From contig CAZTFB010000001.1 of the NCBI GenBank assembly GCA_964612595.1, positions 67,058-131,057 on the forward strand: a DNA stretch of 64,000 nucleotides, in the 5' to 3' direction. Shown piece after piece: positions 1 through 26,685 of this stretch. The position numbers and the translations under genes were made by a program. Numbering within the stretch: the stretch's first letter is position 1; the number at the start of each line of letters is the position of its first letter. Source of the stretch: an uncultured Gammaproteobacteria bacterium. Its GTDB lineage: Bacteria; Patescibacteriota; Microgenomatia; UBA1406; HO2-37-13b. The notes beneath the pieces are model-generated. The model did not search any database. It was not told the origin of the DNA and worked only from the letters and a program-made list of their open reading frames with translations.

Positions 1-1079
1 GGTCGATGACGGTGTTAAGCGCATTTGGATTTCAGTGGATGTTGGAGTTTATGCGCCAACGACTTAAAAATAACCTGCTCCGGCAATTTGTGACATATCT
101 TTTAGTGACGGTTTCGGTTGTTCAGCTACTGCATTATGGCTACAACTATAATCCGATTGGAACAGCAAAAGATTGGTTAAGAATGCCTGCGTTAACACAG
201 AACATTCCGGATGATAAGCGTTTCTACACTATTGGATCAGAGGTGGCCTGGAACAAACATTATGTAAATGCTGGCTGGTCTCATCTTGAACCATATTTAC
301 AGCTGCTTAATTATGCAGAGCCGAACTTTAATGTCCTCTACAAAAAACCTGCTTTTGAGGTGTATCCGATACTTATTTCACTAAGATACCAAGTAATGGC
401 AAACCTTATTGAGAGAGAAATAGTGCTTGATGATAGTTTGTCTTCATTTGAGGTGAGTGATCTCGGTATCAAGCTACTTCGTATGAACAATACCAGCACA
501 ATTGTATCAGCCATGAATAATAATACGTTGGAAATTATTGCAGAAAAAAACAGTTCGTATGATAAAGTATCGCTGTATTCAGTTCCCAACCCGCTACAAA
601 GGGTACGTATGGTGTATGATTTTGATATAGCAACGACTGTCGAAGAGTTTCAAGATAAAGTTGCAGATAATGATTTTGACCCAGCAACAACAATTCTGCT
701 TGAGAATAATCCAACAGACACTTTGCCCTTAGAGCAGACAAAACATGCTCTCTCAACTATCGATGTTGTTGCGCAAGAACCGACAACGCAAACAATCAAA
801 GTGACTACCAATCAGAATGGCATACTGGTCATGTCAGATTTGTATTATCCTGGGTGGTCTGCATATATTAATGCAAGTCCAACTGAAATCTTTCCTGCGA
901 ATGTAGCTCAAAGAGCGATTGTTATACCAAAAGGTGAACATCTCGTAACATTCACCTATCAGCCGAAGAGTTTTAGGCAGGGAGCAATTATTTCTCTCAT
1001 TACGCACGTGGTTGTGTTTATTCTAATTTTTGTTGTGAGTCTTTTAGCAACTCGGTATAGACGCGCGTCCACTCTTTAG
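1..1079 (+). CDS. YfhO-family (GT-C-like) polytopic membrane protein, C-terminal part; 5' end outside window
   Basis: ORF 6..1079 stays open to the window edge. The C-terminal block LYYPGWSAYINASP..IPKGEHLVTFTYQPKSF plus a terminal TM helix is the pattern I associate with YfhO-type proteins. Confidence 0.6.
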   Translation, partial: SMTVLSAFGFQWMLEFMRQRLKNNLLRQFVTYLLVTVSVVQLLHYGYNYNPIGTAKDWLRMPALTQNIPDDKRFYTIGSEVAWNKHYVNAGWSHLEPYLQLLNYAEPNFNVLYKKPAFEVYPILISLRYQVMANLIEREIVLDDSLSSFEVSDLGIKLLRMNNTSTIVSAMNNNTLEIIAEKNSSYDKVSLYSVPNPLQRVRMVYDFDIATTVEEFQDKVADNDFDPATTILLENNPTDTLPLEQTKHALSTIDVVAQEPTTQTIKVTTNQNGILVMSDLYYPGWSAYINASPTEIFPANVAQRAIVIPKGEHLVTFTYQPKSFRQGAIISLITHVVVFILIFVVSLLATRYRRASTL

Positions 1080-3030
1080 CTTTTTCATTATCTTTTTGAC
1101 ATTCTGTATATAGTTTTACGAATAATAGAGCTGTTTCTTTTGCTTTTGGAAACTTCTTATGTGCATCAGATAGCACAGTACGCGCCCGCTCACATTTTTC
1201 CTGCTCAAGCAGAACTAATGCTAGTTTCTGATGTACCTTTACGTCATTATCATCATAACGAAGCGCTGCCAAAAAATGACGTTCTGCTCCAGGAAGATCT
1301 TTTGCAGCAAGGAAATAATTTCCTGTCTCATATCGGTGCATGCGGTATATGAGTAAATTTGTAGCCAGCATTAAATGTTTATACTTACTAAGGCTACCAT
1401 CCATGGGATCGTAATATTTCGCCCATAAATCATCATTTTTCTTGAGCAACTCCTTTATGGGCGGAAGGTTGTTTTTATCATACAATTTATACAGCACACC
1501 TTCACGGATCCATGCTGAACTTGATGAAATTGGATAAGGTTCGTTTGTATATATTGCATGCTTATCACTATTGAGCGCAGTAAACTTTTCTCCAAATCGC
1601 CTATCGTCAGACTTTGGAAATTTTAACTCTGGGTAGTGTACAGCAATATTTTTAAATCGTTTAGATACAACAAGATGTGATCTATTTGCGACAATAAGAT
1701 CGTTTCTGTACCCACTTGCATAACGGATGTAGGCTGCATTAAATATATCATTATCATTCGAAAGCAACACAATACTATCTTTATCTGCTGTATCAAGGAT
1801 ATTCATGGCAAGTTTTTCTGCGGTCATATCAGTGCGTAGAACACTTAATTTAGGGAAGTTTATGAAGAAAAGGTTGATCGGTAGTATCATGCAGAGGGCG
1901 AATACGAGGGGGTAATAGTTGGTTGAAGAAGTTGTAGATGTCTTTACACGAATGTATGCAACAAGGCTCTCAAATGCTCTAAAAAGCGCTACGACGCCCA
2001 TACCAATCCAGATAGCAAATATGACGTAAGATGGCATAAGAAAGCGCTCGAAAGTTGCAATAGTAAAGCTGTTTGTAAGAATATAACCCGCATAAAGAAA
2101 GTAAATGGGTCCGGTACACATATAAGCTATAGTGTGGTAGTAGAAATTGCGTTTATTTCTCATATATTCGTAGATTGCCCCAGCTATTCCCACTGCAAAG
2201 GCAGGAAGAGTTATATCTTCGATTAGTACAACAAAATACGCATACACTCCCATGAGGCGTGCAAAAGGAGATTCAACAACTATAGTAGCAGCTGAGAATG
2301 AGCCATACGATGCGCGTGTTAGTAGTTTAATGAAGTTATTTAGTGTTAAGGTGTCTTGCCATGTGTAGATTGCTTGGCTGTTAATTGATATTGCAAGCCA
2401 AAAAAGTGGCAGCAAAGCAATCACGGTACTAAGGATCAACAATATTACATTGTTTTTTATAAGGTTCTTAACGGGTAATTTGTGGGAATACAGCAAGAAT
2501 AAGTATGAGGGAACCATAAAAAGAATGATATGATGGTGTGAAAGTGACAATATGAATAAGAAAATAAATTCTATTCCTGCCCATCGTGATTTACGCTCAA
2601 GCCATGAATGTAAGGTGAGCATCTGGAAAACTACAAATAATATATGGAGAGCGAATACTTCGGGAACTATAGCATATAGCCAATACAAATAAGATAAGCC
2701 AATAGTACCTACAGCAACAATACCTGCGAGCATACTCTTCGCATAGTTTGAAATGTAGGCGAATAATCCAGTCAAAGCTAATGCGAGAGAAATTGAAGAA
2801 ATTAAACCAATTCGCCAGGCCACCGTTCCAATGGACAGTGTGTGAGAAAGTATATAACCAAGAAAAGTATATAGAGGATACCCAGGTGGGTGTGCAACGC
2901 CACCTGTGTATGCAGCTGTCACAAGATCGCCAGCATCACCTCCGAAAATTGAACTTGATTGTGTGTAAGAAAACAATATTGAAAAAAACGCAAAGATTCC
3001 TAGTGTGACTATGCCTTGCCTAGACTTCAT
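1018..3030 (-). CDS. DUF2723/TMEM260-like GT-C membrane glycosyltransferase with C-terminal TPR-like region
   Basis: 670-aa ORF. N-terminal motif GGDAGDLVTAAYTGGVAHPPGYPLYT (DUF2723 signature), many TM helices, helical-repeat soluble C-terminus. It has a 62-nt convergent 3' overlap with the YfhO-like gene. Confidence 0.7.
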   Translation of the reverse strand: MKSRQGIVTLGIFAFFSILFSYTQSSSIFGGDAGDLVTAAYTGGVAHPPGYPLYTFLGYILSHTLSIGTVAWRIGLISSISLALALTGLFAYISNYAKSMLAGIVAVGTIGLSYLYWLYAIVPEVFALHILFVVFQMLTLHSWLERKSRWAGIEFIFLFILSLSHHHIILFMVPSYLFLLYSHKLPVKNLIKNNVILLILSTVIALLPLFWLAISINSQAIYTWQDTLTLNNFIKLLTRASYGSFSAATIVVESPFARLMGVYAYFVVLIEDITLPAFAVGIAGAIYEYMRNKRNFYYHTIAYMCTGPIYFLYAGYILTNSFTIATFERFLMPSYVIFAIWIGMGVVALFRAFESLVAYIRVKTSTTSSTNYYPLVFALCMILPINLFFINFPKLSVLRTDMTAEKLAMNILDTADKDSIVLLSNDNDIFNAAYIRYASGYRNDLIVANRSHLVVSKRFKNIAVHYPELKFPKSDDRRFGEKFTALNSDKHAIYTNEPYPISSSSAWIREGVLYKLYDKNNLPPIKELLKKNDDLWAKYYDPMDGSLSKYKHLMLATNLLIYRMHRYETGNYFLAAKDLPGAERHFLAALRYDDNDVKVHQKLALVLLEQEKCERARTVLSDAHKKFPKAKETALLFVKLYTECQKDNEKAKEWTRVYTELLKDSQQKLE

Positions 3031-3044
3031 TGCGACATTATAGC

Positions 3045-3076
3045 AAAAAAAACCCTCCGGATATCCGGAGGGTTTT
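3045..3076 (-). terminator. Rho-independent terminator downstream of the major pilin gene
   Basis: Perfect 8-bp GC-rich stem CCCTCCGG/CCGGAGGG with a 4-nt loop (3053..3072). It is followed on the minus strand by T8 (plus-strand A run 3045..3052). Confidence 0.8.
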
Positions 3077-16658: not shown

Positions 16659-19208
16659 ATGCGAAGATTCTCAAGATTACAACGACAGAAAATGACCCCT
16701 TTGTTGTTAAAAGGGGCACTTATAAGTGTTGTTGTTTTTTTTGTACTTGGTTTTTTAGCGTTTCTCTTTCTCGCACGCAATCTTCCTGAACCAGGAAGCG
16801 TAAAAAGAAATACAGGATTTTCGACAGTTATACTTGATAGAGACGGCAAAACACTCTACGAATTATACGAAGATAAAAATCGAATTCCAGTATCTATTAA
16901 GGATGTTCCAGTACACCTTAAGCAAGCGACAATCGCTATTGAAGATAAATCCTTCTATTCACATCAGGGGTTCTCTACATGGGGCATTGTGCGCTCGGTA
17001 TTTAGAATTTTGACTACGGGAAATCTTGTCAGTGGATCCACCCTTACACAACAACTGGTTAAGAATGTCTTACTTACCCAAGATCAAACATTATCAAGAA
17101 AAGTAAAAGAGGTTGTACTCGCAGTTGAAATAGAAAGAAGATTTACTAAAGATGAGATTCTTGAGATGTACCTCAACGAATCACCATATGGCGGTACATT
17201 TTGGGGAGCCCAGTCTGCATCGAAAGGATACTTTGATAAGGATGTGAAGGATCTGAATCTTGTTGAATCAGCAATAATGGCCGGACTACCACAGCGGCCA
17301 TCTTACTATAATCCTCTCTCAGGTAAAGAAGGCGCATTCAAGGGTCGCACAAAAGATGTCCTACGTAGAATGCGAGAGGATAAGTACATAACAAAAGAAG
17401 AAGAAAAGAAAGCCCTCGCGGATCTGGAGAAAATTAGCTTTAAAAATGCGCCGGGTGTTGCGATTGAAGCGCCACATTTTATTTTCTACGTGCGCGCGCT
17501 TGTTGCAGAAAAGTTTGGTGAAAAAATTCTTGACCAAGGTATAAAAATTAAGACGACCCTATCGTTAGATGCGCAAAAGGAAGCAGAGAAAGTACTTAAT
17601 GAGGAAGTTAAAAAACTAAAATCAGCGAGTGTTGGCAACGGTTCAACGGTAGTACTAGACTCAAAAACCTCGCAAATTCTCGCAATGGTTGGTTCGTATG
17701 ATTACAATGATGAAGAATTTGGCCGCTTTAATACGACTACAGCGCTTAGACAACCTGGCTCTGCAGTAAAACCTATCACCTATGCAACTGCTTTTGAACA
17801 AGGCTACACACCTTCTTCATTAGTTATGGATGTGCAAACGGAGTTTCCAGATCAAGGTGAGAAAGTCTATAGCCCTGTAAATTATGACGGAAAGTTTAGA
17901 GGTCCTGTGCAGTATAGATTCGCTCTCGCCAACTCGCTTAATGTGCCGGCCGTAAAAGTGTTGGCGAATGTAGGTATTCGTAACTTCCTACAGAAGGCTT
18001 ATGATATGGGTCTTACAAGCTTTGAACCGACAAAGGCAAATCTTAAGAGGTTTGGTCTATCGCTCACATTAGGAGGTGGAGAAACAACACTGCTTGATCT
18101 TACCTCGGCATTTTCTGTGTTTGCAAGAGGTGGTACCCGCATAGAGCCTATATCAATACTCGAAATTAGAGATAATAAGGATAAGGTTATTTTTAAAGCC
18201 TCAGATCCTAAACCAAAACAGGTGTTAACTCCTGGTGTGTCATTCCTAATTTCACACATTCTCTCCGACAATACAGCTCGGTCCGAGGCTTTTGGTTCAA
18301 ACTCTTTCTTACGTGTACCGGGTAAAACGGTCGCAGTAAAGACCGGAACAACAAACGACAAGAGAGATAATTGGACGATTGGATTTACAAAGGATGTAAC
18401 AGTGGGTGTGTGGGTTGGTAACAATGACAACTCACCAATGAATCAGAAGATAGCATCAGGTGTGACGGGAGCTTCGCCAATCTGGAATAGGATTATGAAA
18501 AACATGCTGAAAACTTATTCTGATGGTCTTATGGCGAAACCTGATGAAGTAGATGCCCTGCAGGTTGATGCTTTTCTTGGTGGACTACCGAAGGATGGTT
18601 ATCCAATCCGTTCAGAATATTTTGTTAAAGGAACAGAGCCAAAATCAATGTCACCTTTCTATAAAAAACTTAAATTTTCGAAAAGTACGGGAAAACTCGC
18701 CAACGATATCGAAATAAAAACAGGTGATTATGAAGAGCGAGATTTTATAGTTATTACTGAATCGGACCCTGTATCGACGGATGGTAAAAATAGATGGCAG
18801 GAAGCTATCGAGGCTTGGGCATATTCCCAACCAGATGAAAAGTTTAAACCATCGAGAGATGTGTCTGATTCAAAACAAGATGAGTTGGTTGTATCTATTC
18901 GTGAGCCTGGAAATGAGTCACGCATAAACTCGAATACAATAAAGGTAATCGCTAGAATAACGTCGCTTCAAGACATTCGAAAGGTTGAAATTCAGGTCAA
19001 TGGTTCAACAATAAAAACGTATGAAGAGAATAAGAAAGATATTGAAGAAAACATCACTCTGTCAGACGGTACTTATGAGATTAGGATAATTGCTGAAAAC
19101 GTTAAAGGTGTTCGTAAAGATTCAGCGATACGTATTGGAGTAAATAAAGAATGGAATGAATCACAACCTACACAAGTGCCGCAAGCGCAACCTACAGCGT
19201 CGCCGTAA
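16659..19208 (+). CDS. Class A penicillin-binding protein (transglycosylase + transpeptidase) with C-terminal Ig-like extension
   Basis: N-terminal TM anchor. GT51 motifs IAIEDKSFYSHQG and RKVKE. Transpeptidase motifs SAVKP, SLN and KTGTT. Confidence 0.9.
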   Translation: MRRFSRLQRQKMTPLLLKGALISVVVFFVLGFLAFLFLARNLPEPGSVKRNTGFSTVILDRDGKTLYELYEDKNRIPVSIKDVPVHLKQATIAIEDKSFYSHQGFSTWGIVRSVFRILTTGNLVSGSTLTQQLVKNVLLTQDQTLSRKVKEVVLAVEIERRFTKDEILEMYLNESPYGGTFWGAQSASKGYFDKDVKDLNLVESAIMAGLPQRPSYYNPLSGKEGAFKGRTKDVLRRMREDKYITKEEEKKALADLEKISFKNAPGVAIEAPHFIFYVRALVAEKFGEKILDQGIKIKTTLSLDAQKEAEKVLNEEVKKLKSASVGNGSTVVLDSKTSQILAMVGSYDYNDEEFGRFNTTTALRQPGSAVKPITYATAFEQGYTPSSLVMDVQTEFPDQGEKVYSPVNYDGKFRGPVQYRFALANSLNVPAVKVLANVGIRNFLQKAYDMGLTSFEPTKANLKRFGLSLTLGGGETTLLDLTSAFSVFARGGTRIEPISILEIRDNKDKVIFKASDPKPKQVLTPGVSFLISHILSDNTARSEAFGSNSFLRVPGKTVAVKTGTTNDKRDNWTIGFTKDVTVGVWVGNNDNSPMNQKIASGVTGASPIWNRIMKNMLKTYSDGLMAKPDEVDALQVDAFLGGLPKDGYPIRSEYFVKGTEPKSMSPFYKKLKFSKSTGKLANDIEIKTGDYEERDFIVITESDPVSTDGKNRWQEAIEAWAYSQPDEKFKPSRDVSDSKQDELVVSIREPGNESRINSNTIKVIARITSLQDIRKVEIQVNGSTIKTYEENKKDIEENITLSDGTYEIRIIAENVKGVRKDSAIRIGVNKEWNESQPTQVPQAQPTASP

Positions 19209-21186
19209 TGGTATCTAATTCAGCTTGTGCTTCCTCTTCGGTCATATTCCTATCATCTCTTCCAAAGGTCATTCGTACAGTTACCTTATTCTGAAATGTT
19301 GACAGTACATCAAGTGAAAGTAAGTACGGAGATGCTTTGAGTGCCTTTTCTGTCAATAAGCCATATGTGCGTGAGGGTGAGGATTCGTATGTGTAGTCTC
19401 GCTTTATGCGAGCAAATCTTGCTCCTTCTTCGTATTTACTATATTTTTCGACATATGAAAGAGTTTTCGCAAGTGATACTTCTGCAACAGCAACTGTTGT
19501 ATCGATATCTAAGTGTGCACTTATCTGTTTTTGAAGAAGACCAATATAGCCAACAGGTTCGTCTTGTATGAGTATTGTAGCCGATGTGGCACTTGTAAGA
19601 TAACGTACTCCCCCATCAGGAACAAAGCGTACGTTTCTAACTTTTAGAATCGTGAAAAGGTTTTCGACTGTGCCTTTAAGCGCAGCATATCCTTCAGTTG
19701 AGACAAGACCAATGTTCTCTACCTCTAACGGGAGTTCATTATCAACTTTATTATAAATTCGAGCGCATTCAAAAAACTTCATCGTCTCTTTGTATCCTTT
19801 ATTTGTGGCAATATTGTTCACAAGCGAAGGAATAAGTGAGGTACGCATAAATTCAATATCTTCTGAAATTGTGTTAGCCAAGTGAAGATGGTCATCACTG
19901 TTTACATTGAATAAGGTAATTAGTTTTTTCGAAATCATAGAATAGTTGAGTTGTTCATTATATCCTGTTGCACGCAGATACTCTCGCATAAGTACTTGGG
20001 CATCGAATATGTTTTGAAGTTCAAGAGGCTGATCTATAGGTACACCTATTTCTAAAAGTCCTGGAATATTATGATATCCATATATTCGAGCGATTTCCTC
20101 AACAATATCGGCAGGTGTAGCAACGTCTTTAGCTCTGTAGCTAGGAACGGTCACGCGTATCTCTTGATCGCTGAGCACTTCAACTCTAAATCCAAGTGGG
20201 GTTATCAGTTCAGCTATTTCTGTTCCAAGTAGCTCTGTGTTTGTTATCGTGCGAATATACGCTACATTCAGGTCAATGGTGACGCTTGTCTTTTTTGTTG
20301 GGTACACATCAATGATTGCAGATGAAGGCTTACCTCCAGCATATTTGGAGAGCAGATTTATACCATACACCAGCGCAGGTTCTACTCGCTCTTCATCAAG
20401 TCCTTTTTCAAAGTATGCTACCGCCATACTACGTTGACCCGTACTCATAGAGGTTCTTCGTAACATGCGTTTATTATAGGTTTCGATACACAAGAGCACA
20501 TTTTTTGTGCTGGTAGTTATTGCGGAGTTGTAGCCACCCATAATGCCGGCCAGGTCGATCAGTGTACCGCTTCCATCTTCAATAACTATATCGTCGCCTG
20601 GTAATATAAACTCTTTCTTATCAAGTGTCATAATTTTTTCACCTTTCTTGCTTTTGCGAATGCGCATTGTGCGCCCAGCAATTTTGTCCAAGTCAAACGT
20701 GTGGTTTGGTTGTCCGAGAGCAATCATTATGTAATTTGATATGTCGACAACATTATTAATGACACTAATGCCACAAGCTTTAAGACGTTCTTGTATAAAT
20801 GCTGGAGAGGGACCGATAGTCACCTCACTCAGCACAACTGCAGACACACGTGATGCAAGCTCCTCAGATTCGAGCTCTACAGCAATCTGATGTAAGGGGT
20901 TAGTAATAGTGCTGTCAAAAGTAAGATCTAATAAAGGGTTAGACTTCAGTTTTGCTAACTTGTTATAACGTGGTAATATTGCTGCACATTCAAGAGCAAA
21001 ACCAAAGGCTGATGCAGCATCTATACGGTTTGAAGTTACCTCCACATCATACACATAATCATCTCCAATCTTTTCAATAGTTTCGACATTTGGTCCACAT
21101 AGTGATACGTAGTCTTGAATCTCTTGAGGTGTAGCATCTGTCTCAAGGTAGTCAAGAAGCATGTTGTGTGTAAATTTTACGTTCAT
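19192..21186 (-). CDS. pheT: Phenylalanyl-tRNA synthetase beta subunit (short form, no N-terminal tRNA-binding OB domain)
   Basis: 664 aa. B3/B4 and B5 region similarity and a C-terminal FDX-ACB-like domain, directly downstream of pheS. Confidence 0.85.
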   Translation of the reverse strand: MNVKFTHNMLLDYLETDATPQEIQDYVSLCGPNVETIEKIGDDYVYDVEVTSNRIDAASAFGFALECAAILPRYNKLAKLKSNPLLDLTFDSTITNPLHQIAVELESEELASRVSAVVLSEVTIGPSPAFIQERLKACGISVINNVVDISNYIMIALGQPNHTFDLDKIAGRTMRIRKSKKGEKIMTLDKKEFILPGDDIVIEDGSGTLIDLAGIMGGYNSAITTSTKNVLLCIETYNKRMLRRTSMSTGQRSMAVAYFEKGLDEERVEPALVYGINLLSKYAGGKPSSAIIDVYPTKKTSVTIDLNVAYIRTITNTELLGTEIAELITPLGFRVEVLSDQEIRVTVPSYRAKDVATPADIVEEIARIYGYHNIPGLLEIGVPIDQPLELQNIFDAQVLMREYLRATGYNEQLNYSMISKKLITLFNVNSDDHLHLANTISEDIEFMRTSLIPSLVNNIATNKGYKETMKFFECARIYNKVDNELPLEVENIGLVSTEGYAALKGTVENLFTILKVRNVRFVPDGGVRYLTSATSATILIQDEPVGYIGLLQKQISAHLDIDTTVAVAEVSLAKTLSYVEKYSKYEEGARFARIKRDYTYESSPSRTYGLLTEKALKASPYLLSLDVLSTFQNKVTVRMTFGRDDRNMTEEEAQAELDTITATL

Positions 21187-21187
21187 A

Positions 21188-22204
21188 TTAAAATTGTGTT
21201 AAAAACCCCAACTCACCTGAATATATAACGCGCAGATCAGGAATAGACACACCTCCACGCATCATTGCAACCCGTTCTACGCCGAATCCAAATGCCCAGC
21301 CTGTATATTTATCAGGGTCAATGCCGCCCTCTTTTAATACGTTGGGGTGAACCATGCCAGCACCTCCTAATTCGAGCCATCCGGCTCTCCCTATAGATGT
21401 GGTACCTGTATGAATATCTACCTCAAAGGACGGTTCAGTAAAGAGAAAATCATATGGTCGAAGCCGAATTTTACATGCTCGACCAAAGAATTCTCGCACA
21501 AAATACTCTATCGTTCCTTTGAGATGAGAAATATTGATTCCTTTATCGATACAGAGGCCTTCAAATTGATGGAACATAGGGGTATGTGTGCTGTCCCAAT
21601 TAGGTCTATATGTGCGAGAAATATTGATCATGCGCACTGGTGGCTTTCCACGGCGTAACATTTCTCGCACCTGTCCTGAAGAAGTATGTGGTGTGAGTAA
21701 CATTTTGCCATGTTTCTCATGTTCCGGCGCATCTATAAAAAAAGTCTCAAAATCATCGCGCGCCGGGTGGATTTTAGGCATATTGAGGGCATCAAAGGCG
21801 TAGTATTCCCATTCGACCTCAGGGTATGACATATTTATAAAACCAATTTTTGCATATATATCTCGTATGTCTTTAATTGTTTGAGATACAATATGAAGCG
21901 AACCAAGTTCTTGTGAGGTGCCGGGTAGAGTAGGATCAATCCAGATTTTAGTATCTTCCTGTTGGAGAAGGTCAGTTCGTTTTTGTGCGAGCTCTAGCTC
22001 TGTAAACCGCTTTACCTCGTTAATTTTCTCTCCATGTTCTTTAATTTTCTCCTTAGGAAGATCTTTAAGTTGAGCAAATAACGCATTGAGAAGTCCCTTT
22101 CGACCAAGAAATTCTGTTGCAATCTTTTCAAGATCTTGAAGTGAAGCAACAGTAGCGAGCTTAGTTTTTAACGATTGTTGTAAGCTCGCCAACGCATCGT
22201 CCAT
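21188..22204 (-). CDS. pheS: Phenylalanyl-tRNA synthetase alpha subunit
   Basis: 338 aa. Class II motifs, HPARDDFETFFI, FEGLCID, GWAFGFGVERVAMMR. Confidence 0.95.
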   Translation of the reverse strand: MDDALASLQQSLKTKLATVASLQDLEKIATEFLGRKGLLNALFAQLKDLPKEKIKEHGEKINEVKRFTELELAQKRTDLLQQEDTKIWIDPTLPGTSQELGSLHIVSQTIKDIRDIYAKIGFINMSYPEVEWEYYAFDALNMPKIHPARDDFETFFIDAPEHEKHGKMLLTPHTSSGQVREMLRRGKPPVRMINISRTYRPNWDSTHTPMFHQFEGLCIDKGINISHLKGTIEYFVREFFGRACKIRLRPYDFLFTEPSFEVDIHTGTTSIGRAGWLELGGAGMVHPNVLKEGGIDPDKYTGWAFGFGVERVAMMRGGVSIPDLRVIYSGELGFLTQF

Positions 22205-22211
22205 AGAAGGT

Positions 22212-22556
22212 TTACTTATTAACAGTTTCTACAATTTTTCTAAATATTTCTGGCTTTTCAGTAGCAAAATGAGCCAAGATTTTTCTATCTAGTAAAACGT
22301 TGTGAGTTTTTAAATTGTTAATAAATGTACTGTAATTAGTTTCGAGTGCGTGTAAACCTGCATTAATGCGTGTAATCCAGAGCTGACGGAAGTTTCTTTT
22401 GCGGAGTTTTCGCCCCATGAAGGCATATTCCCCAGCATGTAGTACTGCTTGTGTTGCTACTTTAATCTGCTTTCTTCGAGTCATTCTATACCCTTTTGCA
22501 AGATCAAGTATTTTATTGTGTCGCTGCCTTGTTCTGACGCCTCCTTTAATTCTCAT
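22212..22556 (-). CDS. rplT: 50S ribosomal protein L20
   Basis: MRIKGGVRTRQRHNKILDLAKGY..RRNFRQLWITRINA is canonical L20. Confidence 0.95.
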   Translation of the reverse strand: MRIKGGVRTRQRHNKILDLAKGYRMTRRKQIKVATQAVLHAGEYAFMGRKLRKRNFRQLWITRINAGLHALETNYSTFINNLKTHNVLLDRKILAHFATEKPEIFRKIVETVNK

Positions 22557-22750
22557 ACGCCTAACATTTTCTTAATTTTAACTTTAAACACACCATTAAC
22601 TTCTTTCATCAATTTTTGAGCACGTAAACGTCGGTTAGACTTATTGCTTTTTAAATGTCTGACACCATGACCACGATGGAGAACCTTCCCAGTTCCCGTA
22701 ACCTTGAAGCGTTTAGACGCTGCATTTCTGGTTTTTAATTTAGTTTTCAT
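22553..22750 (-). CDS. rpmI: 50S ribosomal protein L35
   Basis: Internal Met gives MKTKLKTRNAASKRFKVTGTGKVLHRGHG.. (65 aa), a typical L35. The tracked ORF is extended upstream into infC. Confidence 0.9.
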   Translation of the reverse strand: MKTKLKTRNAASKRFKVTGTGKVLHRGHGVRHLKSNKSNRRLRAQKLMKEVNGVFKVKIKKMLGV

Positions 22751-22751
22751 A

Positions 22752-23291
22752 TTATGATTTTCCTTTTCGAACGACAACTGCCATAATGACTTTGCCTTGC
22801 ATCTTTGGTTCAACAGCAACCGTTGCCTCTTCAAGGGATCCTATAAACCCCTTCATAAGTTCACGCGCCATTTCTGTTTTTCCAAGTTCTCTACCTCTTA
22901 ATGGTAGTTTCACACGAACCTGAAATCCTTCGCCAAGGAACTCATGTGCCTTGTTGCGGAGTCTTCCAAGATCCTGATCACCAATAAAAAGCGAAAGTTG
23001 GATGTCTTTTGTACCACCCTTTTTCTGACCCTTTTTACTTTCCTTATTCTTTTTTTCTTCTTGATAGAGAAACTTATGGAAATCAATCGCCTTAATCACC
23101 TGCGGGTTTGCATGTGGGGCAATTAAAATCAGATCCACTTCGTTGGTTCGTGCATGCTCCAAGGCTTCTGCTCTCGAAACTACTCCAACCTGTTCTCCCT
23201 TTTCGTCAATGAGTCTGAATGTGTCTCCTTGAATGCGCTCGTTTGTTACGTATCTTCTTTGGAGCGAATTCGCGTTAGATTGGCTTCTCAA
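22752..23291 (-). CDS. infC: Translation initiation factor IF-3
   Basis: NERIQGDTFRLIDEKGEQVGVVSRAEAL, then a linker, then the C-domain. Conserved thrS-infC-rpmI-rplT order. The exact start is uncertain because infC genes often use non-ATG starts. Confidence 0.9.
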   Translation of the reverse strand: MRSQSNANSLQRRYVTNERIQGDTFRLIDEKGEQVGVVSRAEALEHARTNEVDLILIAPHANPQVIKAIDFHKFLYQEEKKNKESKKGQKKGGTKDIQLSLFIGDQDLGRLRNKAHEFLGEGFQVRVKLPLRGRELGKTEMARELMKGFIGSLEEATVAVEPKMQGKVIMAVVVRKGKS

Positions 23292-25026
23292 AATGTGTTT
23301 TGTTTTCCTTTATGAACTCGTAAAGACTCATTGTGCCTAAATCTTTTCCCTCACGGGAACGAAGGGAAAGCGTCTTATTAGTACTTTCCTTCTGCCCTAT
23401 TATACACAGGTACGGTACCTTTTGCAATGTCCAGTATCTTATTTTTGCAGACATGGTTTTATTGTCATAATCAGCTATGGCGCGTATTCCCTCTTTCTTT
23501 AATGCCATCAAAACATCCTCGGCATAACTGTGTTCGGTCTCCCTAATGGGAATAATAGCGAGTTGTGTTGGTGCGAGCCATGAGGGAAATTTTCCTGCGG
23601 TATGTTCGATATACACTGATAAAAAGCGCTCGAGCGATCCCATAAGTGCAAAATGGATCATTACAGGTGTCTGATCGTTACCTTCAGCATCGGTGTATGT
23701 TAATCCAAATCGCTTCGGTTGCACAAAGTCTAATTGTGGTGTAGCTAGTTGCCACTCGCGTCCTAAAGCGTCCGTAACCATAAAGTCGATTTTGGGCCCA
23801 TAGAATGCGGCTTCTCCTTCGGCTATATAGTAATCAAGCTGGTTTTTTTTGGCAATATCTAAGATAGTATCTTGGGCCAGATCCCATAGCGATGTATCGC
23901 CGAGGTACTTCTCTGGTTGAGATGGATCTCTAAATGACAACCGAGCTCTATATTTCATCCCAAGTGTGTCATAAAACCTTCTTGTTATGTCGATAAGATC
24001 CTGATATACCATTGAGATTTGCTCTGGCATACAAAAGGTATGACTGTCATCTTGTGTGACTGATCGTACGCGTGATAACCCTAGCAATTCACCTGCTTTC
24101 TCATCGCGGTAAATGGTTGTCGTTTCAAGATATTTAATGGGTAAATCCTTGTAACTCCTTGGGCGTGATGCATATATTTGTTGGTGATGTGGGCAGTTCA
24201 TTGGCTTCATCACGAGCTCATCACTTGTTTCTTGGCTTTTAACAAGAAATAATTCATCACCAAATTTGTCCCAATGTCCCGACGTTTGGTAGAGCTCTTT
24301 CTTTGTTATATGAGGTACCCAAACACGTTCAAAACCATTATCTAGGCGCAATCTTTGTGAGAATTCGTTTAATAATTCTCGCAATAGTGCTCCACGTGGT
24401 GTAAATAGAGGTAACCCTTTACCTACGAGATCGGAAAATACAAACAAGTCCAATTCTGTTCCTAGTTTTCTGTGGTCACGCTTCTTTGCTTCCTCGAGCA
24501 TGAGTAGGTGTGCATCGAGTTCTTCCTTAGTAGGAAAGCAGGTTCCATAAATGCGCGTGAGCATTGCATTTTTCTCATTTCCTCTCCAATATGCTCCCGC
24601 GACAGACAACAATTTAAAATACTTTAGCGTTTCCTTTGGATTATCAACATGTCCACCTTTGCATAGGTCGCGATAGCTTCCAGACTTATAGAAGCTTACT
24701 TTTTTTGTCCCACCTTCAGAAAACTCATCAATAAGTTCATGCTTATATGGATTATTAGGGTAGTCAGCTTTCGCTTCATCAGCTCCTAATTCGACGAGTT
24801 CGAACGTATCCCATGTTTTTAACAATTCACGCATTTTCTGCTCTATTTTTGGAAAATCATCGCCAGATATCGGCTGTTCAAATTCAAAATCGAAGTAAAA
24901 ACCGTTTTCAATAGCAGGTCCAATAGCTCGTTTAGTGTTTGGCCATACATCCATTACAGCTGCTGCAAGCAGATGAGCACAAGAATGACGTAAACTGTTT
25001 AATTGTTCCTGATTTTCATTATTCAT
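23275..25026 (-). CDS. thrS: Threonyl-tRNA synthetase lacking the N-terminal TGS domain
   Basis: 583 aa. Starts directly in the editing (N2) domain with HSCAHLLAAAV. Class II core and anticodon-binding domain are present. Confidence 0.95.
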   Translation of the reverse strand: MNNENQEQLNSLRHSCAHLLAAAVMDVWPNTKRAIGPAIENGFYFDFEFEQPISGDDFPKIEQKMRELLKTWDTFELVELGADEAKADYPNNPYKHELIDEFSEGGTKKVSFYKSGSYRDLCKGGHVDNPKETLKYFKLLSVAGAYWRGNEKNAMLTRIYGTCFPTKEELDAHLLMLEEAKKRDHRKLGTELDLFVFSDLVGKGLPLFTPRGALLRELLNEFSQRLRLDNGFERVWVPHITKKELYQTSGHWDKFGDELFLVKSQETSDELVMKPMNCPHHQQIYASRPRSYKDLPIKYLETTTIYRDEKAGELLGLSRVRSVTQDDSHTFCMPEQISMVYQDLIDITRRFYDTLGMKYRARLSFRDPSQPEKYLGDTSLWDLAQDTILDIAKKNQLDYYIAEGEAAFYGPKIDFMVTDALGREWQLATPQLDFVQPKRFGLTYTDAEGNDQTPVMIHFALMGSLERFLSVYIEHTAGKFPSWLAPTQLAIIPIRETEHSYAEDVLMALKKEGIRAIADYDNKTMSAKIRYWTLQKVPYLCIIGQKESTNKTLSLRSREGKDLGTMSLYEFIKENKTHFEKPI

Positions 25027-25070
25027 AATGATCCGACTTAATTATAAGTTATTGAACGTGTTATTGCTAC

Positions 25071-25140
25071 AAAAAAACCCGCCGAAGCGGGGTCTCTAGC
25101 TCTCTGCTCGCGCAGACAGACCACCGCTTATTGCGGGATC
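25071..25140 (-). promoter_or_regulatory. thrS leader attenuator: alternative hairpins 1:2, 2:3 (antiterminator) and 3:4 (terminator + U7)
   Basis: Minus strand: seg1 GATCCCGC 25140..25133; seg2 GCGGTGGTC 25127..25119; seg3 GACCCCGC 25094..25087; UUCG loop; seg4 GCGGG 25082..25078; T7 25077..25071. Seg2 is complementary to both seg1 and seg3. Confidence 0.6.
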
Positions 25141-25178
25141 GTAGTAGTGGTCAATTGTGAAAATTTTGTCTGCTTCAT
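25128..25178 (-). CDS. Putative thrS leader peptide MKQTKFSQLTTTTIPQ (16 aa)
   Basis: Hand translation gives ATG AAG CAG ACA AAA TTT TCA CAA TTG ACC ACT ACT ACG ATC CCG CAA TAA. There are four consecutive Thr codons just before attenuator segment 1, and the stop codon sits in the 1:2 loop. Confidence 0.55.
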   Translation of the reverse strand: MKQTKFSQLTTTTIPQ

Positions 25179-25188
25179 ACTTAGTGCG

Positions 25189-25197
25189 ATTATAACA
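25189..25197 (-). promoter_or_regulatory. Extended -10 promoter (TGTTATAAT) for the thrS leader
   Basis: Minus strand reads TGTTATAAT, and the leader ATG begins 10 nt after the hexamer. Confidence 0.5.
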
Positions 25198-25373
25198 TAT
25201 ACGACATATCCCCATAAAATTACTCATGTGTTTGAACAATCCAGGATCTTTTAGAGAGCTACTTTATCTATGTGCTAGTACAAAAACACTAAAGTATTAA
25301 TTGTGAGCTCGAGAATAATTAAAAATTCTTCCACGTACTAGTACATGCAAAAGTGCGTCATAAAAAACAGAGT

Positions 25374-25541
25374 ATGATATCTCTTTTTAAACTACTGGTT
25401 GTGGACAATTCAGGCGATGGTTGGAACCCCATCTTTGATACCCTGCTTCGAATATACCAAAAATTTAAAGACCTCGGTTTAACCTATTGTGAAGGTAAAG
25501 TTACGATAATTGATGTTGAAAAGGAGAATCTCCATGTTTAA
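25374..25541 (+). CDS. Small hypothetical ORF (55 aa from the internal ATG)
   Basis: ORF only. Its stop overlaps the next ORF start, which has an AAGGAG RBS. No recognisable motif. Confidence 0.25.
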   Translation: MISLFKLLVVDNSGDGWNPIFDTLLRIYQKFKDLGLTYCEGKVTIIDVEKENLHV

Positions 25542-25803
25542 TCTCCTTAAAACACTATTTCCTCAGAATGATTTAATAGACTCAAAGTTGTTTGATGAGC
25601 ACACTTTCTATCAAGCATTTGTTCGGGATCTGAAAAAGTGCAAAAAAGAGGTCATTATTGAATGCTCTTTTATAACAAGTACAAGAAAGGAGAAATTGCT
25701 ACTTGTATTTAGGGAATTGCTCTATAGAAAGGTAAAAGTCCATATTATTACCAGAGATCCGGTTGAACACGAGGAGTTTTCCAGCAACCTCTTTTTGAGT
25801 TAA
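25534..25803 (+). pseudogene. PLD-like nuclease family protein, N-terminal fragment only
   Basis: AAGGAG RBS, then MFNLL..FYQAFVRDLKKCKKEVIIECSFITSTRKEKLL..KVKVHIITRDPVEHEE. This resembles the first lobe of PLD-like (PLDc_2) nucleases, but the ORF ends before any HxK motif. Confidence 0.45.
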
Positions 25804-25872
25804 GCCTTTCCCGGATCGTGCTTTCTTTAGAGTTTTTCCAAGTATCGTATCTTCCTTACGGATGTATGGCAT
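25699..25872 (-). pseudogene. XRE-family helix-turn-helix protein fragment
   Basis: Hand translation gives MPYIRKEDTILGKTLKKARSGKGLTQKEVAGKL, a typical HTH_3 start. From about 25774 onward it degenerates into the antisense of the PLD fragment. Confidence 0.4.
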
Positions 25873-25980
25873 GAAATAAAAGAGTATAGATTGACAAAAC
25901 TTTTCCTAGTGAGCCCTTCTTGCGGCTAAAAGTAAGACAGCAGTAGTATTATTACAAATCTTTTTCAAAAAACATTACTA

Positions 25981-26685
25981 CTACTCTGCGTATTGTGTTA
26001 TTCGAGACATAAAAGTTCTACTCGCTACCTGAGGAACAAGAGGTTTTCCGCCGCGTGCACGAAAACTTGTGTCTTGCTGATCATCTCTATAAAATCCAGG
26101 TGCAATGACTGAAAGCTGAAATCCCTCTCGAGATAACCTCTCATGCTGCCTGTCTAATCTTGCATGCTCCTCATAACTGGTCCCGTGTGCATGTCCTCCT
26201 ACATCGGCTGGGTACCGGTCTTCCGCCATTTTGTTCCTTCTGTCAAACTCTGCTTTCTCTCTAATGAAAGATGCTGTCTTTCTTTTCAACCACTCTGAAC
26301 CTGCTTTTGTCAGTTCATGAGGTTGACAACTAATTGGTACTCCTGATGTAACAGCTTCTCTAAGCTTATCTTGGGCTAATTTAAGTCGAGCGAGCATTTC
26401 TTGAGAACCCATTTCTGGAAATTGCGGTTCCTTTTCTTGATTTACTGCTTGAATCTCAGCATCATAGAAGCCCGGAATTAAGGCGGTTAATCGGTAGGTA
26501 TCTAAGGCGGTAACTAATCTTGGAACAACATGCTTATCGTCGTATTTTTGCATTTGAGATCGTTGCATTGATTCGTATTGACCTATTAATGCTCCAAGGT
26601 CAGTCAATACAGATTCACATGTAGTCATTGGTAGGCGATTTACACCTGTGTTTATGTCTTTTTCTGCATTAGGCTCATTATCCAT
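25981..26685 (-). CDS. Hypothetical protein (234 aa) with an internal repeated motif
   Basis: Intact ORF. Motif LTALIPGFYDAE is repeated as LSVIAPGFYRDD. GC looks higher than the surroundings by eye. No family recognised. Confidence 0.5.
   Translation of the reverse strand: MDNEPNAEKDINTGVNRLPMTTCESVLTDLGALIGQYESMQRSQMQKYDDKHVVPRLVTALDTYRLTALIPGFYDAEIQAVNQEKEPQFPEMGSQEMLARLKLAQDKLREAVTSGVPISCQPHELTKAGSEWLKRKTASFIREKAEFDRRNKMAEDRYPADVGGHAHGTSYEEHARLDRQHERLSREGFQLSVIAPGFYRDDQQDTSFRARGGKPLVPQVASRTFMSRITQYAE

Follow-up and report, generated by a model that had tools for sequence, protein, structure and literature searches.

A predicted threonine leader-peptide attenuator upstream of thrS in a candidate phyla radiation genome and its counterparts in related lineages

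The stretch of contig CAZTFB010000001.1 analysed here, 64 kb in full and referred to below as the window, carries on its minus strand a compact leader located immediately upstream of thrS, the gene coding for threonyl-tRNA synthetase (ThrRS). All coordinates of the leader refer to this minus (-) strand and were read from the sequence unless another basis is named. An extended -10 box, TGTTATAAT, without a good -35 element, marks a predicted promoter, P1 (25197..25189), and is separated by a 10-nucleotide (nt) spacer from the ATG of a short open reading frame (ORF) of 16 codons plus TAA (25178..25128, the stop codon being 25130..25128). Given this spacing, the 5' untranslated region (UTR) is predicted to be only ~3-4 nt long, and the ORF is devoid of a Shine-Dalgarno (SD) sequence. 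Its codons (ATG AAG CAG ACA AAA TTT TCA CAA TTG ACC ACT ACT ACG ATC CCG CAA TAA) encode the peptide MKQTKFSQLTTTTIPQ, and equivalent ORFs are found in relatives. Threonine (Thr) accounts for 5 of the 16 codons, 4 of which are consecutive; these putative regulatory codons, ACC ACT ACT ACG (codons 10-13, 25151..25140), sit 3 codons ahead of the stop.

The ORF overlaps and precedes four short segments able to pair in alternative ways. Segment 1, GAUCCCGC (25140..25133), pairs in the fold of 25140..25119 with segment 2, GCGGUGGUC (25127..25119), which lies directly 3' of the stop codon; the resulting hairpin would act as an anti-antiterminator and possibly as a pause hairpin. According to sequence and folding, segment 2 is the partner of either segment 1 or segment 3, GACCCCGC (25094..25087). 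The predicted 2:3 antiterminator encloses an inner hairpin, UCUGC-GCGA-GCAGA (25116..25103), recovered both by folding and by the alignment of close relatives. Folding also makes segment 3 the 5' arm of a terminator hairpin, which is completed by a UUCG loop (25086..25083) and segment 4, GCGGG (25082..25078), and is followed by a U7 tract (25077..25071). The whole intrinsic terminator, CCCGC-UUCG-GCGGG plus U7, occupies 25091..25071, and a consensus terminator scan independently calls CCCGC-TTCG-GCGGG plus its T-run terminator-like. The leader RNA is only ~108 nt long, and 44 nt separate the U-tract from the thrS ATG (25026). An earlier note on this DNA had described the same -10 box, 16-codon ORF with five Thr, four segments, UUCG loop and U7, and had pointed out that the leader mRNA would itself be nearly leaderless; every coordinate was recovered on the minus strand, and the predicted 5' UTR agrees with the latter remark.

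The switch behaviour of the window leader was explored with a ribosome mask model, in which the RNA is covered from its 5' end to 12 nt beyond the A site. Masks with the A site at Thr 12 or Thr 13 reach 25133 and 25130, respectively, and hide segment 1 only, whereas the mask of a ribosome at the stop codon reaches 25118 and hides the whole of segment 2. The 1:2 helix amounts to -9.7 to -10.0 kcal/mol, the 2:3 helix with the inner hairpin to -19.0 kcal/mol (-22.0 with two more pairs), and the 3:4 hairpin to -8.7 kcal/mol for its core, or -10.3 in extended form. A ribosome at the stop codon allows the terminator alone to form. If the A site is instead at Thr 12 or 13, the 2:3 antiterminator has the lowest energy as long as segment 4 has yet to be transcribed, and in the complete leader the 2:3 state (-22.0 kcal/mol) and the terminator-containing fold (-23.4 kcal/mol) are 1.4 kcal/mol apart. 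The earlier note had reasoned that a ribosome on the Thr codons would hide segment 1 and a ribosome on the stop codon segment 2, and had proposed to compare the 2:3 pairing with 3:4; mask folding reproduces both states, and the 2:3 pairing does compete. Because of the similarity of segment 1 to segment 3 and of segment 2 to segment 4, a nested 1:4 + 2:3 fold is also open to the free RNA. In the free full-length leader this nested fold reaches -32.3 kcal/mol against -33.2 kcal/mol for 1:2 + 3:4, and it is the minimum-energy structure in several relatives. The order in which the segments are made is expected to promote 1:2, then 3:4, rather than the nested fold.

In the mechanism that we infer from this arrangement, P1 would start the transcript at, or a few nt before, the leader AUG, and a ribosome would load as on a leaderless mRNA. 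With ample Thr-tRNA, this ribosome would reach the stop codon and its footprint would hide segment 2; segment 3 would then be free to pair with segment 4, and RNA polymerase would terminate in vivo at U7. When Thr-tRNA is scarce, the ribosome would stall within ACC-ACU-ACU-ACG and hide segment 1 while leaving segment 2 exposed. Segments 2 and 3 would pair before segment 4 is made, no terminator would form, and transcription would proceed into thrS. On an RNA carrying no ribosome, 1:2 would form first and 3:4 would subsequently terminate transcription.

The thrS loci used for comparison came from species-representative genomes (80 loci), from metagenomes (80 loci among the matches listed) and from the surroundings of single ThrRS proteins (13 loci). 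The metagenome loci are mostly distant (~50% identity) and are the source of L083, L084, L099, L101, L147 and L157, individual loci being cited by such numbers. In the 78 usable loci of the genome set, the 400 nt upstream of thrS were searched on the sense strand for ORFs of 5-45 codons starting with ATG and containing at least 4 consecutive Thr codons. Such ORFs occur at 11 of the 78 loci. The antisense strand of the same 78 loci contains none, and the remaining 19 amino acids combined gave a single match in the same test. The background amounts to 12 of 2374 tiles of 400 nt (~0.5%), with the true cases counted in. Upstream of thrS, only three ACN runs were found outside such ORFs, one of which is the end of a tRNA gene. 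Within the 64-kb window, the thrS leader is the only short ORF with a run of any amino acid before a terminator-like site. Two candidate leaders were rejected: the ACN run of L003 is the 3' end of a tRNA-Val gene, and the candidate of L143 lies inside the N-terminal domain of a full-length ThrRS.

Across all locus sets, at least ~22 distinct leaders were gathered. Close relatives of the window carry MITQNIFITTVTTTPQ (L001), MIKQNIVSSVSTTTTPQ (L002/L162), MNHHNQLTLTTTTNPQ (L161), MRKNAVLESTTTTCPQ (L164) and a truncated leader ending in LTTTTTPQ (L165). More distant leaders encode MKLNLNNQTTTTSS (L004), MKSQIALQTTTTTS (L010), MSLIELVHIITTTTTER (L019), MALFERAYTITTTTTDR (L020), MNTRNCFTTTTTSCP (L027, Roizmanbacteria), MSNCTTTTTTTNPQ (L028), MKKIARIETTTNPR (L044), MLKVNRKTTTTTTPFRGRTL (L046, Daviesbacteria), MSQGITITTTTIL (L066), VRNAVTTTTTTRR (L084), MGLVSFTCTTTTTTRSPG (L099), MLIRLSLAATTTTR (L157) and MLFLFNSTTTTATTR (L172/L173), and weaker or degenerate leaders are found at L005, L038, L101 and L147. 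Every leader that could be classified belongs to the candidate phyla radiation (CPR), also called Patescibacteria: Woesebacteria, Roizmanbacteria, Daviesbacteria, Pacebacteria, further CPR genomes and one contig whose ThrRS is Parcubacteria-like. At L099, the ThrRS is nearest to proteins of the Parcubacteria group; that of L157 is from Candidatus Pacebacteria, and at L172 lies the gene of a protein bearing the name Pacebacteria bacterium RIFOXYB1_FULL_39_46. A short ORF with a Thr run, the feature whose conservation had been proposed as a check on the attenuator, therefore recurs before thrS in both close and distant relatives. At its C-terminus, the leader of the window reads Pro-Gln-stop (CCG CAA TAA, 25136..25128), as do those of L001, L002, L161, L164 and L028, and Pro-Arg-stop or Pro-stop is the leader end in other relatives. 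This Pro-rich end may be a by-product of the CCCGC stem, or may slow termination at the stop codon.

The N-termini of the peptides are unrelated between leaders, and what is kept is the Thr run, with 4-7 consecutive Thr codons in the CPR leaders, and its position near the stop codon (1-4 codons away in most leaders, 7-9 codons in L005, L046 and L101). The terminator lies 25-55 nt further downstream, and a GC hairpin with a U-tract is present in ~20 of 24 related leaders, most of them with at least 5 U. A -10-like hexamer ends 6-14 nt before the leader start in 20 of the 24 (6-8 nt in 13), and 7 of those 20 also have a perfect TTGACA -35 at a spacing of 16-18 nt. The stems themselves vary by clade (CCCGC/GCGGG, CCUCC/GGAGG, CCCCUC/GAGGGG, CCCUCU/AGAGGG, CCCCG/CGGGG), and the four-segment logic is constant. 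A segment at or just after the stop codon complements the Thr-codon region (often ACNACN facing GGUGGU or GUAGU), and the same segment also complements the 5' arm of the terminator; in most leaders, it is the Thr codons themselves that pair with a segment 2 of the GGUGGU or GUAGU type. In mask folding, placing the A site in the Thr run makes the antiterminator the minimum-energy fold, with no terminator, in most leaders, and placing it on the stop codon hides segment 2 and lets the terminator form. When the stalled nascent RNA is folded as far as the terminator loop, ~15 leaders have the terminator's 5' arm sequestered upstream; for 14 of these, only 0-2 of 300 shuffled-spacer trials reproduce the sequestration. 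The automatic terminator picker misassigned L161, L099 and L147 and missed L046; L161, L099, L046 and L172 were refolded by hand. In a Daviesbacteria-like group (L046 at ~2060..2120, L004, L023), the attenuator is 170-270 nt away from thrS, and in L023 an SD-led ORF of 62 amino acids (aa) lies between the two.

An alignment of six closely related sequences, which starts at the promoter and ends shortly after the U-tract, shows both nucleotides and peptide varying over the 5' two-thirds of the ORF. Between the beginning of the Thr run and the U-tract, the nucleotide sequence hardly changes, with the blocks CCGCAATA, GCGG, CCGC and GCGGGTTTTTTT. Within the inner hairpin, the loop varies (GCGA, GCAU, ACGU, GCGU, GUAA) and the stem is kept. 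L161 lacks the inner hairpin altogether, and its minimal set of CCCGC, GCGGA, UCCGC and GCGGG still switches in the mask model. To judge from these sequences, this is the pattern expected of a constraint on the RNA and on codon identity, not of a conserved small protein.

The gene downstream of the leader, thrS (25026..23275, -), codes for a ThrRS of 583 aa with tRNA_SAD, class II core and HGTP_anticodon domains, a short form devoid of the N-terminal TGS domain. Its nearest relatives include proteins named for Candidatus Woesebacteria and Microgenomates bacterium OLB23, which places the window in a CPR bacterium of the Microgenomates group. It is followed by infC, rpmI, rplT, pheS and pheT (19192..23291, -; Pfam assignments), tightly packed as the remainder of the operon; as no intergenic gaps separate thrS from pheT, read-through of the attenuator would feed the downstream genes as well. 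The order thrS-infC-rpmI-rplT is kept in close relatives, and pheS comes next in most of them. In the window, whose G+C content is ~39%, none of 51 long ORFs has a GGAG, GAGG or AGGAG motif within 22 nt of its first ATG, and in ~20 of the 51, typically genes that directly follow a gap, a hexamer resembling TATAAT ends 4-16 nt ahead of the ATG. From these sequence features, leaderless or near-leaderless, SD-less mRNAs look like the norm in this genome, which makes a near-leaderless Thr leader unremarkable. thrS conforms to this habit: a TATAAT box downstream of the terminator (25046..25041, -), which ends 14 nt before its ATG, is a candidate second promoter, P2. A P2-like box is found 6-16 nt before thrS in nearly all leader-carrying relatives. 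P2 is probably a second promoter that yields a leaderless or short-leader thrS mRNA at a basal level, and since it lies beyond the terminator, the attenuator would probably add regulated transcripts to this basal level rather than gate all expression.

Considering the anatomy of the leader, a plan conserved across divergent CPR genomes and the computed alternative folds, we regard as likely, with good confidence, that the element is a functional Thr-tRNA-sensing, ribosome-mediated (leader-peptide) transcription attenuator controlling read-through into thrS-infC-rpmI-rplT-pheS-pheT. Conservation, energetics and geometry thus lend computational support to the reading put forward in the earlier note. 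Several points weigh against it. All support for the attenuator is computational. In the window leader, the stalled-state equilibrium slightly favours the terminator, so that antitermination must be kinetic; antitermination in the Escherichia coli trp leader is likewise kinetic, and the antiterminator is favoured more in the window leader than in the balance of the trp leader. Codon 4 of the leader is also a Thr codon, and a stall there would leave termination unrelieved. In the mask model, the terminator is kept in the stalled equilibrium fold of L046, L066, L028 and L084, and L030 and L083 have a Thr ORF and a hairpin over the stop codon without a clear terminator. The stems are invariant among the six close relatives, in which only the loops and one G-C to G-U position vary, and therefore display no compensatory covariation within that group; those of the distant leaders differ and are not alignable column by column. 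Furthermore, thrS could be expressed mainly as its own leaderless mRNA from P2, and on the read-through transcript its AUG is internal and SD-less. The latter is probably not a strong objection, as the operon-internal genes of this genome are equally internal and SD-less.

The leader is also patchy, which counts against the attenuator as well. It is absent from L003 and L163 (84-85% ThrRS identity), L166 (77%), L167 (76%) and L168 (72%), all within the 72-85% identity range. In L003, L163 and L166, a tRNA-Val(GAC) gene takes its place ~60-140 nt upstream of thrS. L166 retains, after this tRNA gene, the CCCGC-GCGGG-U7 terminator and the next GTAGCA, a pattern which suggests, from the sequence, that the leader ORF was replaced or lost with the terminator remaining. 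L168, which has no leader, carries the threonine synthase gene thrC (195..1493) directly upstream, with 8 nt separating its end from thrS.

Other explanations must be weighed against a cis-acting attenuator. P1, the short ORF and the terminator could form an independent small transcription unit producing its own peptide or small RNA, with thrS transcribed from P2 only and free of control in cis. The -10-like box between the terminator and thrS in the window and its relatives, and the strength of the terminator (GC stem, UUCG loop, U7), fit such a unit, and attenuator-derived RNAs can work in trans in other bacteria (PMC6614838). Its peptide, however, is not conserved save for the Thr run, the sensed amino acid matches the synthetase, and the unit always lies immediately upstream of thrS on the same strand; moreover, the conserved and exclusive pairing of the terminator 5' arm with the stop-adjacent segment would serve no purpose in a simple gene. 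We consider this explanation unlikely. Quite unlikely, too, is a Thr-sensing ORF whose output is something other than the intrinsic terminator, be it thrS translation, interference with P2, Rho or mRNA stability. Leaderless poly-Cys short ORFs of mycobacteria do affect translation of the next gene and not termination (10.1101/834739), read-through transcription would pass over the P2 box, and L030 and L083 have the Thr ORF and the 1:2 hairpin with no obvious terminator. Most leaders nevertheless combine a GC hairpin with at least 5 U, the segment engaged in the alternative pairing coincides exactly with the 5' arm of this hairpin, and the start region of thrS, 44 nt further on, is outside all predicted pairings.

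A leader that senses tRNA or protein directly, either a T-box riboswitch or an E. coli-type operator bound by ThrRS, would be in keeping with the T-box control of thrS in Firmicutes and with the T-box-like GGTGGAACCGCG motifs and weak Rfam T-box matches found before thrS in other CPR loci. It is nonetheless highly improbable for the window: a covariance scan of 24000..26500 against Rfam returned no T-box (RF00230) and no Thr_leader at E<=10, the only matches in the region being chance, terminator-driven ones (rsmX, istR; E>3). The ~108-nt leader does not contain the T-box motif GGTGGNACCGCG, its loops AAUAA, GCGA and UUCG are unlike the tRNA-Thr anticodon loop, and there is no SD sequence available to occlude. 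The assembly might finally be fortuitous: a short ORF with ACN repeats, the repeats being perhaps a by-product of a GGUGGU/ACCACC hairpin, would happen to precede an unremarkable intergenic terminator or insulator between divergent genes. Short ORFs abound in AT-rich intergenic DNA, and the complementarity of segments 1 and 2 alone would favour ACC-type repeats. This explanation is hardly credible. The enrichment holds specifically for Thr, for the sense strand and for thrS; ACN runs before thrS nearly always share the frame of a start close to the promoter and lie near a stop codon; and the plan recurs with unrelated stem sequences. The enrichment, the ACN runs and the result with shuffled spacers effectively refute it.

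Read as an attenuator, the element has several known counterparts. pheM-pheST is the classic case of leader-peptide attenuation of a synthetase operon, trpL, hisL and thrL being those of biosynthetic operons. The window element shares with these E. coli systems a short ORF with tandem cognate codons, the 1:2/2:3/3:4 segments and a GC hairpin with a U-tract, along with regulatory codons located a few codons before the stop and a stop codon beside segment 2. pheM-pheST also regulates a synthetase, in the same thrS-infC-rpmI-rplT-pheST neighbourhood. Unlike this class, the window element is (near-)leaderless and SD-less, resides in a CPR host, has a second promoter-like box beyond its terminator and displays no sequence homology to it; in contrast to pheM-pheST, it precedes thrS, the first gene of the cluster, and senses Thr instead of Phe. 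On sequence grounds, it is best regarded as an analogue, not a homologue, of the enterobacterial thrL leader of thrABC. In E. coli, the thrS operator acts as a tRNA mimic bound by protein, in competition with the ribosome at the SD sequence. Both it and the window element would place thrS under the control of the threonine-tRNA system, but the window lacks anticodon-like loops, an SD sequence and an operator-like structure.

Closer parallels come from actinobacteria. In Streptomyces, leuS and trpS were predicted to be preceded by classical attenuators (PMC1262725), and RNA sequencing of S. lividans revealed leaderless leader peptides, alaL, leuL2, trpL2 and thrL, before alaS, leuS, trpS and thrS (PMC8079986). 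Like the window element, S. lividans thrL is a leaderless leader peptide directly before thrS. However, the Thr codons of thrL number only two (MKRVRPFLETTPGFVPAR), and its authors found a single hairpin without a U-tract and regarded termination as unclear (PMC8079986). In the CPR element, by contrast, 4-7 Thr codons follow one another and a canonical terminator is combined with an explicit antiterminator; the element is kept in many lineages and is unrelated in sequence to that of Streptomyces. The poly-Cys ORFs of mycobacteria, established leaderless sensory short ORFs that act on translation, resemble the window element in carrying a run of one codon at which stalling remodels the downstream RNA, but differ from it in regulating genes of cysteine metabolism instead of a synthetase and in having no intrinsic terminator (10.1101/834739).

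The T-box leaders of thrS share with the window element the gene, the tRNA-Thr charging signal and an output set by a terminator or an antiterminator; a T-box contacts uncharged tRNA directly and without translation, whereas the window element would rely on a translated ORF. The T-box-like motif mentioned above lies upstream of thrS at 20 of 171 loci, named CPR genomes included (among others L169 at ~1110..1200, L103 at 1206..1432, L105 at 869..1068, L052 at 2327..2459 and L150 at 382..508). At the gathering threshold, Rfam found no T-box in these 20 loci. Under relaxed settings, several of them reached 26-39 bits with the T-box model, at E-values between 4e-5 and 0.09; as these scores fall below the gathering score of 93, we call the leaders T-box-like and not T-boxes. 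They are possibly divergent T-boxes missed by the Rfam model. Judging from these sequences, CPR lineages seem to use either a divergent T-box-like leader or a leader peptide for thrS. At L046, a T-box-like motif also occurs ~60 nt upstream of the Thr leader. In Bacillus, a paralogue of hisS has a predicted His leader, and swaps between sensing systems were described for other genes (PMC2965389).

A few further features of the window deserve mention. Divergent from the leader, two overlapping ORFs (62 and 97 aa; 25353..25803, +) without a Pfam match may represent a frameshifted or an uncharacterised gene. A single ORF of 2421 aa spans 47370..54635 (-). At 3050..3075, a GC hairpin of palindromic sequence, ACCCTCCGG-atat-CCGGAGGGT, is accompanied on either strand by T-runs and has the look of a bidirectional terminator; on the minus strand, it is directly followed by TATAAT, 6 nt before the next ATG.

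The mechanism proposed here is not new. What is new is its occurrence in the CPR and, for thrS, its clear form. Full-text literature searches gave no description of a leader-peptide attenuator in CPR/Patescibacteria, in line with the earlier note, which was aware of none in CPR-like genomes; its companion statement, that it was aware of none described for thrS, has to be tempered by the weak case of S. lividans (PMC8079986). Leader-peptide attenuation would be extended to thrS in an unambiguous form, and thrS would become the second example, after hisS, of a synthetase gene for which T-box and leader peptide have been swapped. Beyond the window itself, we lean towards a patchy class of leaderless Thr leader-peptide attenuators across the CPR. 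Such elements would control thrS-infC-rpmI-rplT-pheST in the Woesebacteria-like clade of the window, would alternate with sub-threshold, divergent T-box-like leaders in sister lineages, and may cooperate with a basal leaderless thrS promoter.

The CPR accounts for a large share of bacterial diversity, is mostly uncultured and has very few recognisable regulators. If the attenuator holds true, it would be the first defined sensor of amino-acid charging in the CPR. Through a compact element of ~110 nt, these bacteria would tune ThrRS and, in this clade, initiation factor IF3, ribosomal proteins L35 and L20 and phenylalanyl-tRNA synthetase (PheRS) to the supply of charged tRNA-Thr, a tuning that fits organisms obliged to import amino acids. 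The attenuator also implies that, in this lineage, the first ribosome trails RNA polymerase closely on leaderless transcripts, and would, if true, provide direct evidence of transcription-translation coupling on leaderless mRNAs in the CPR.

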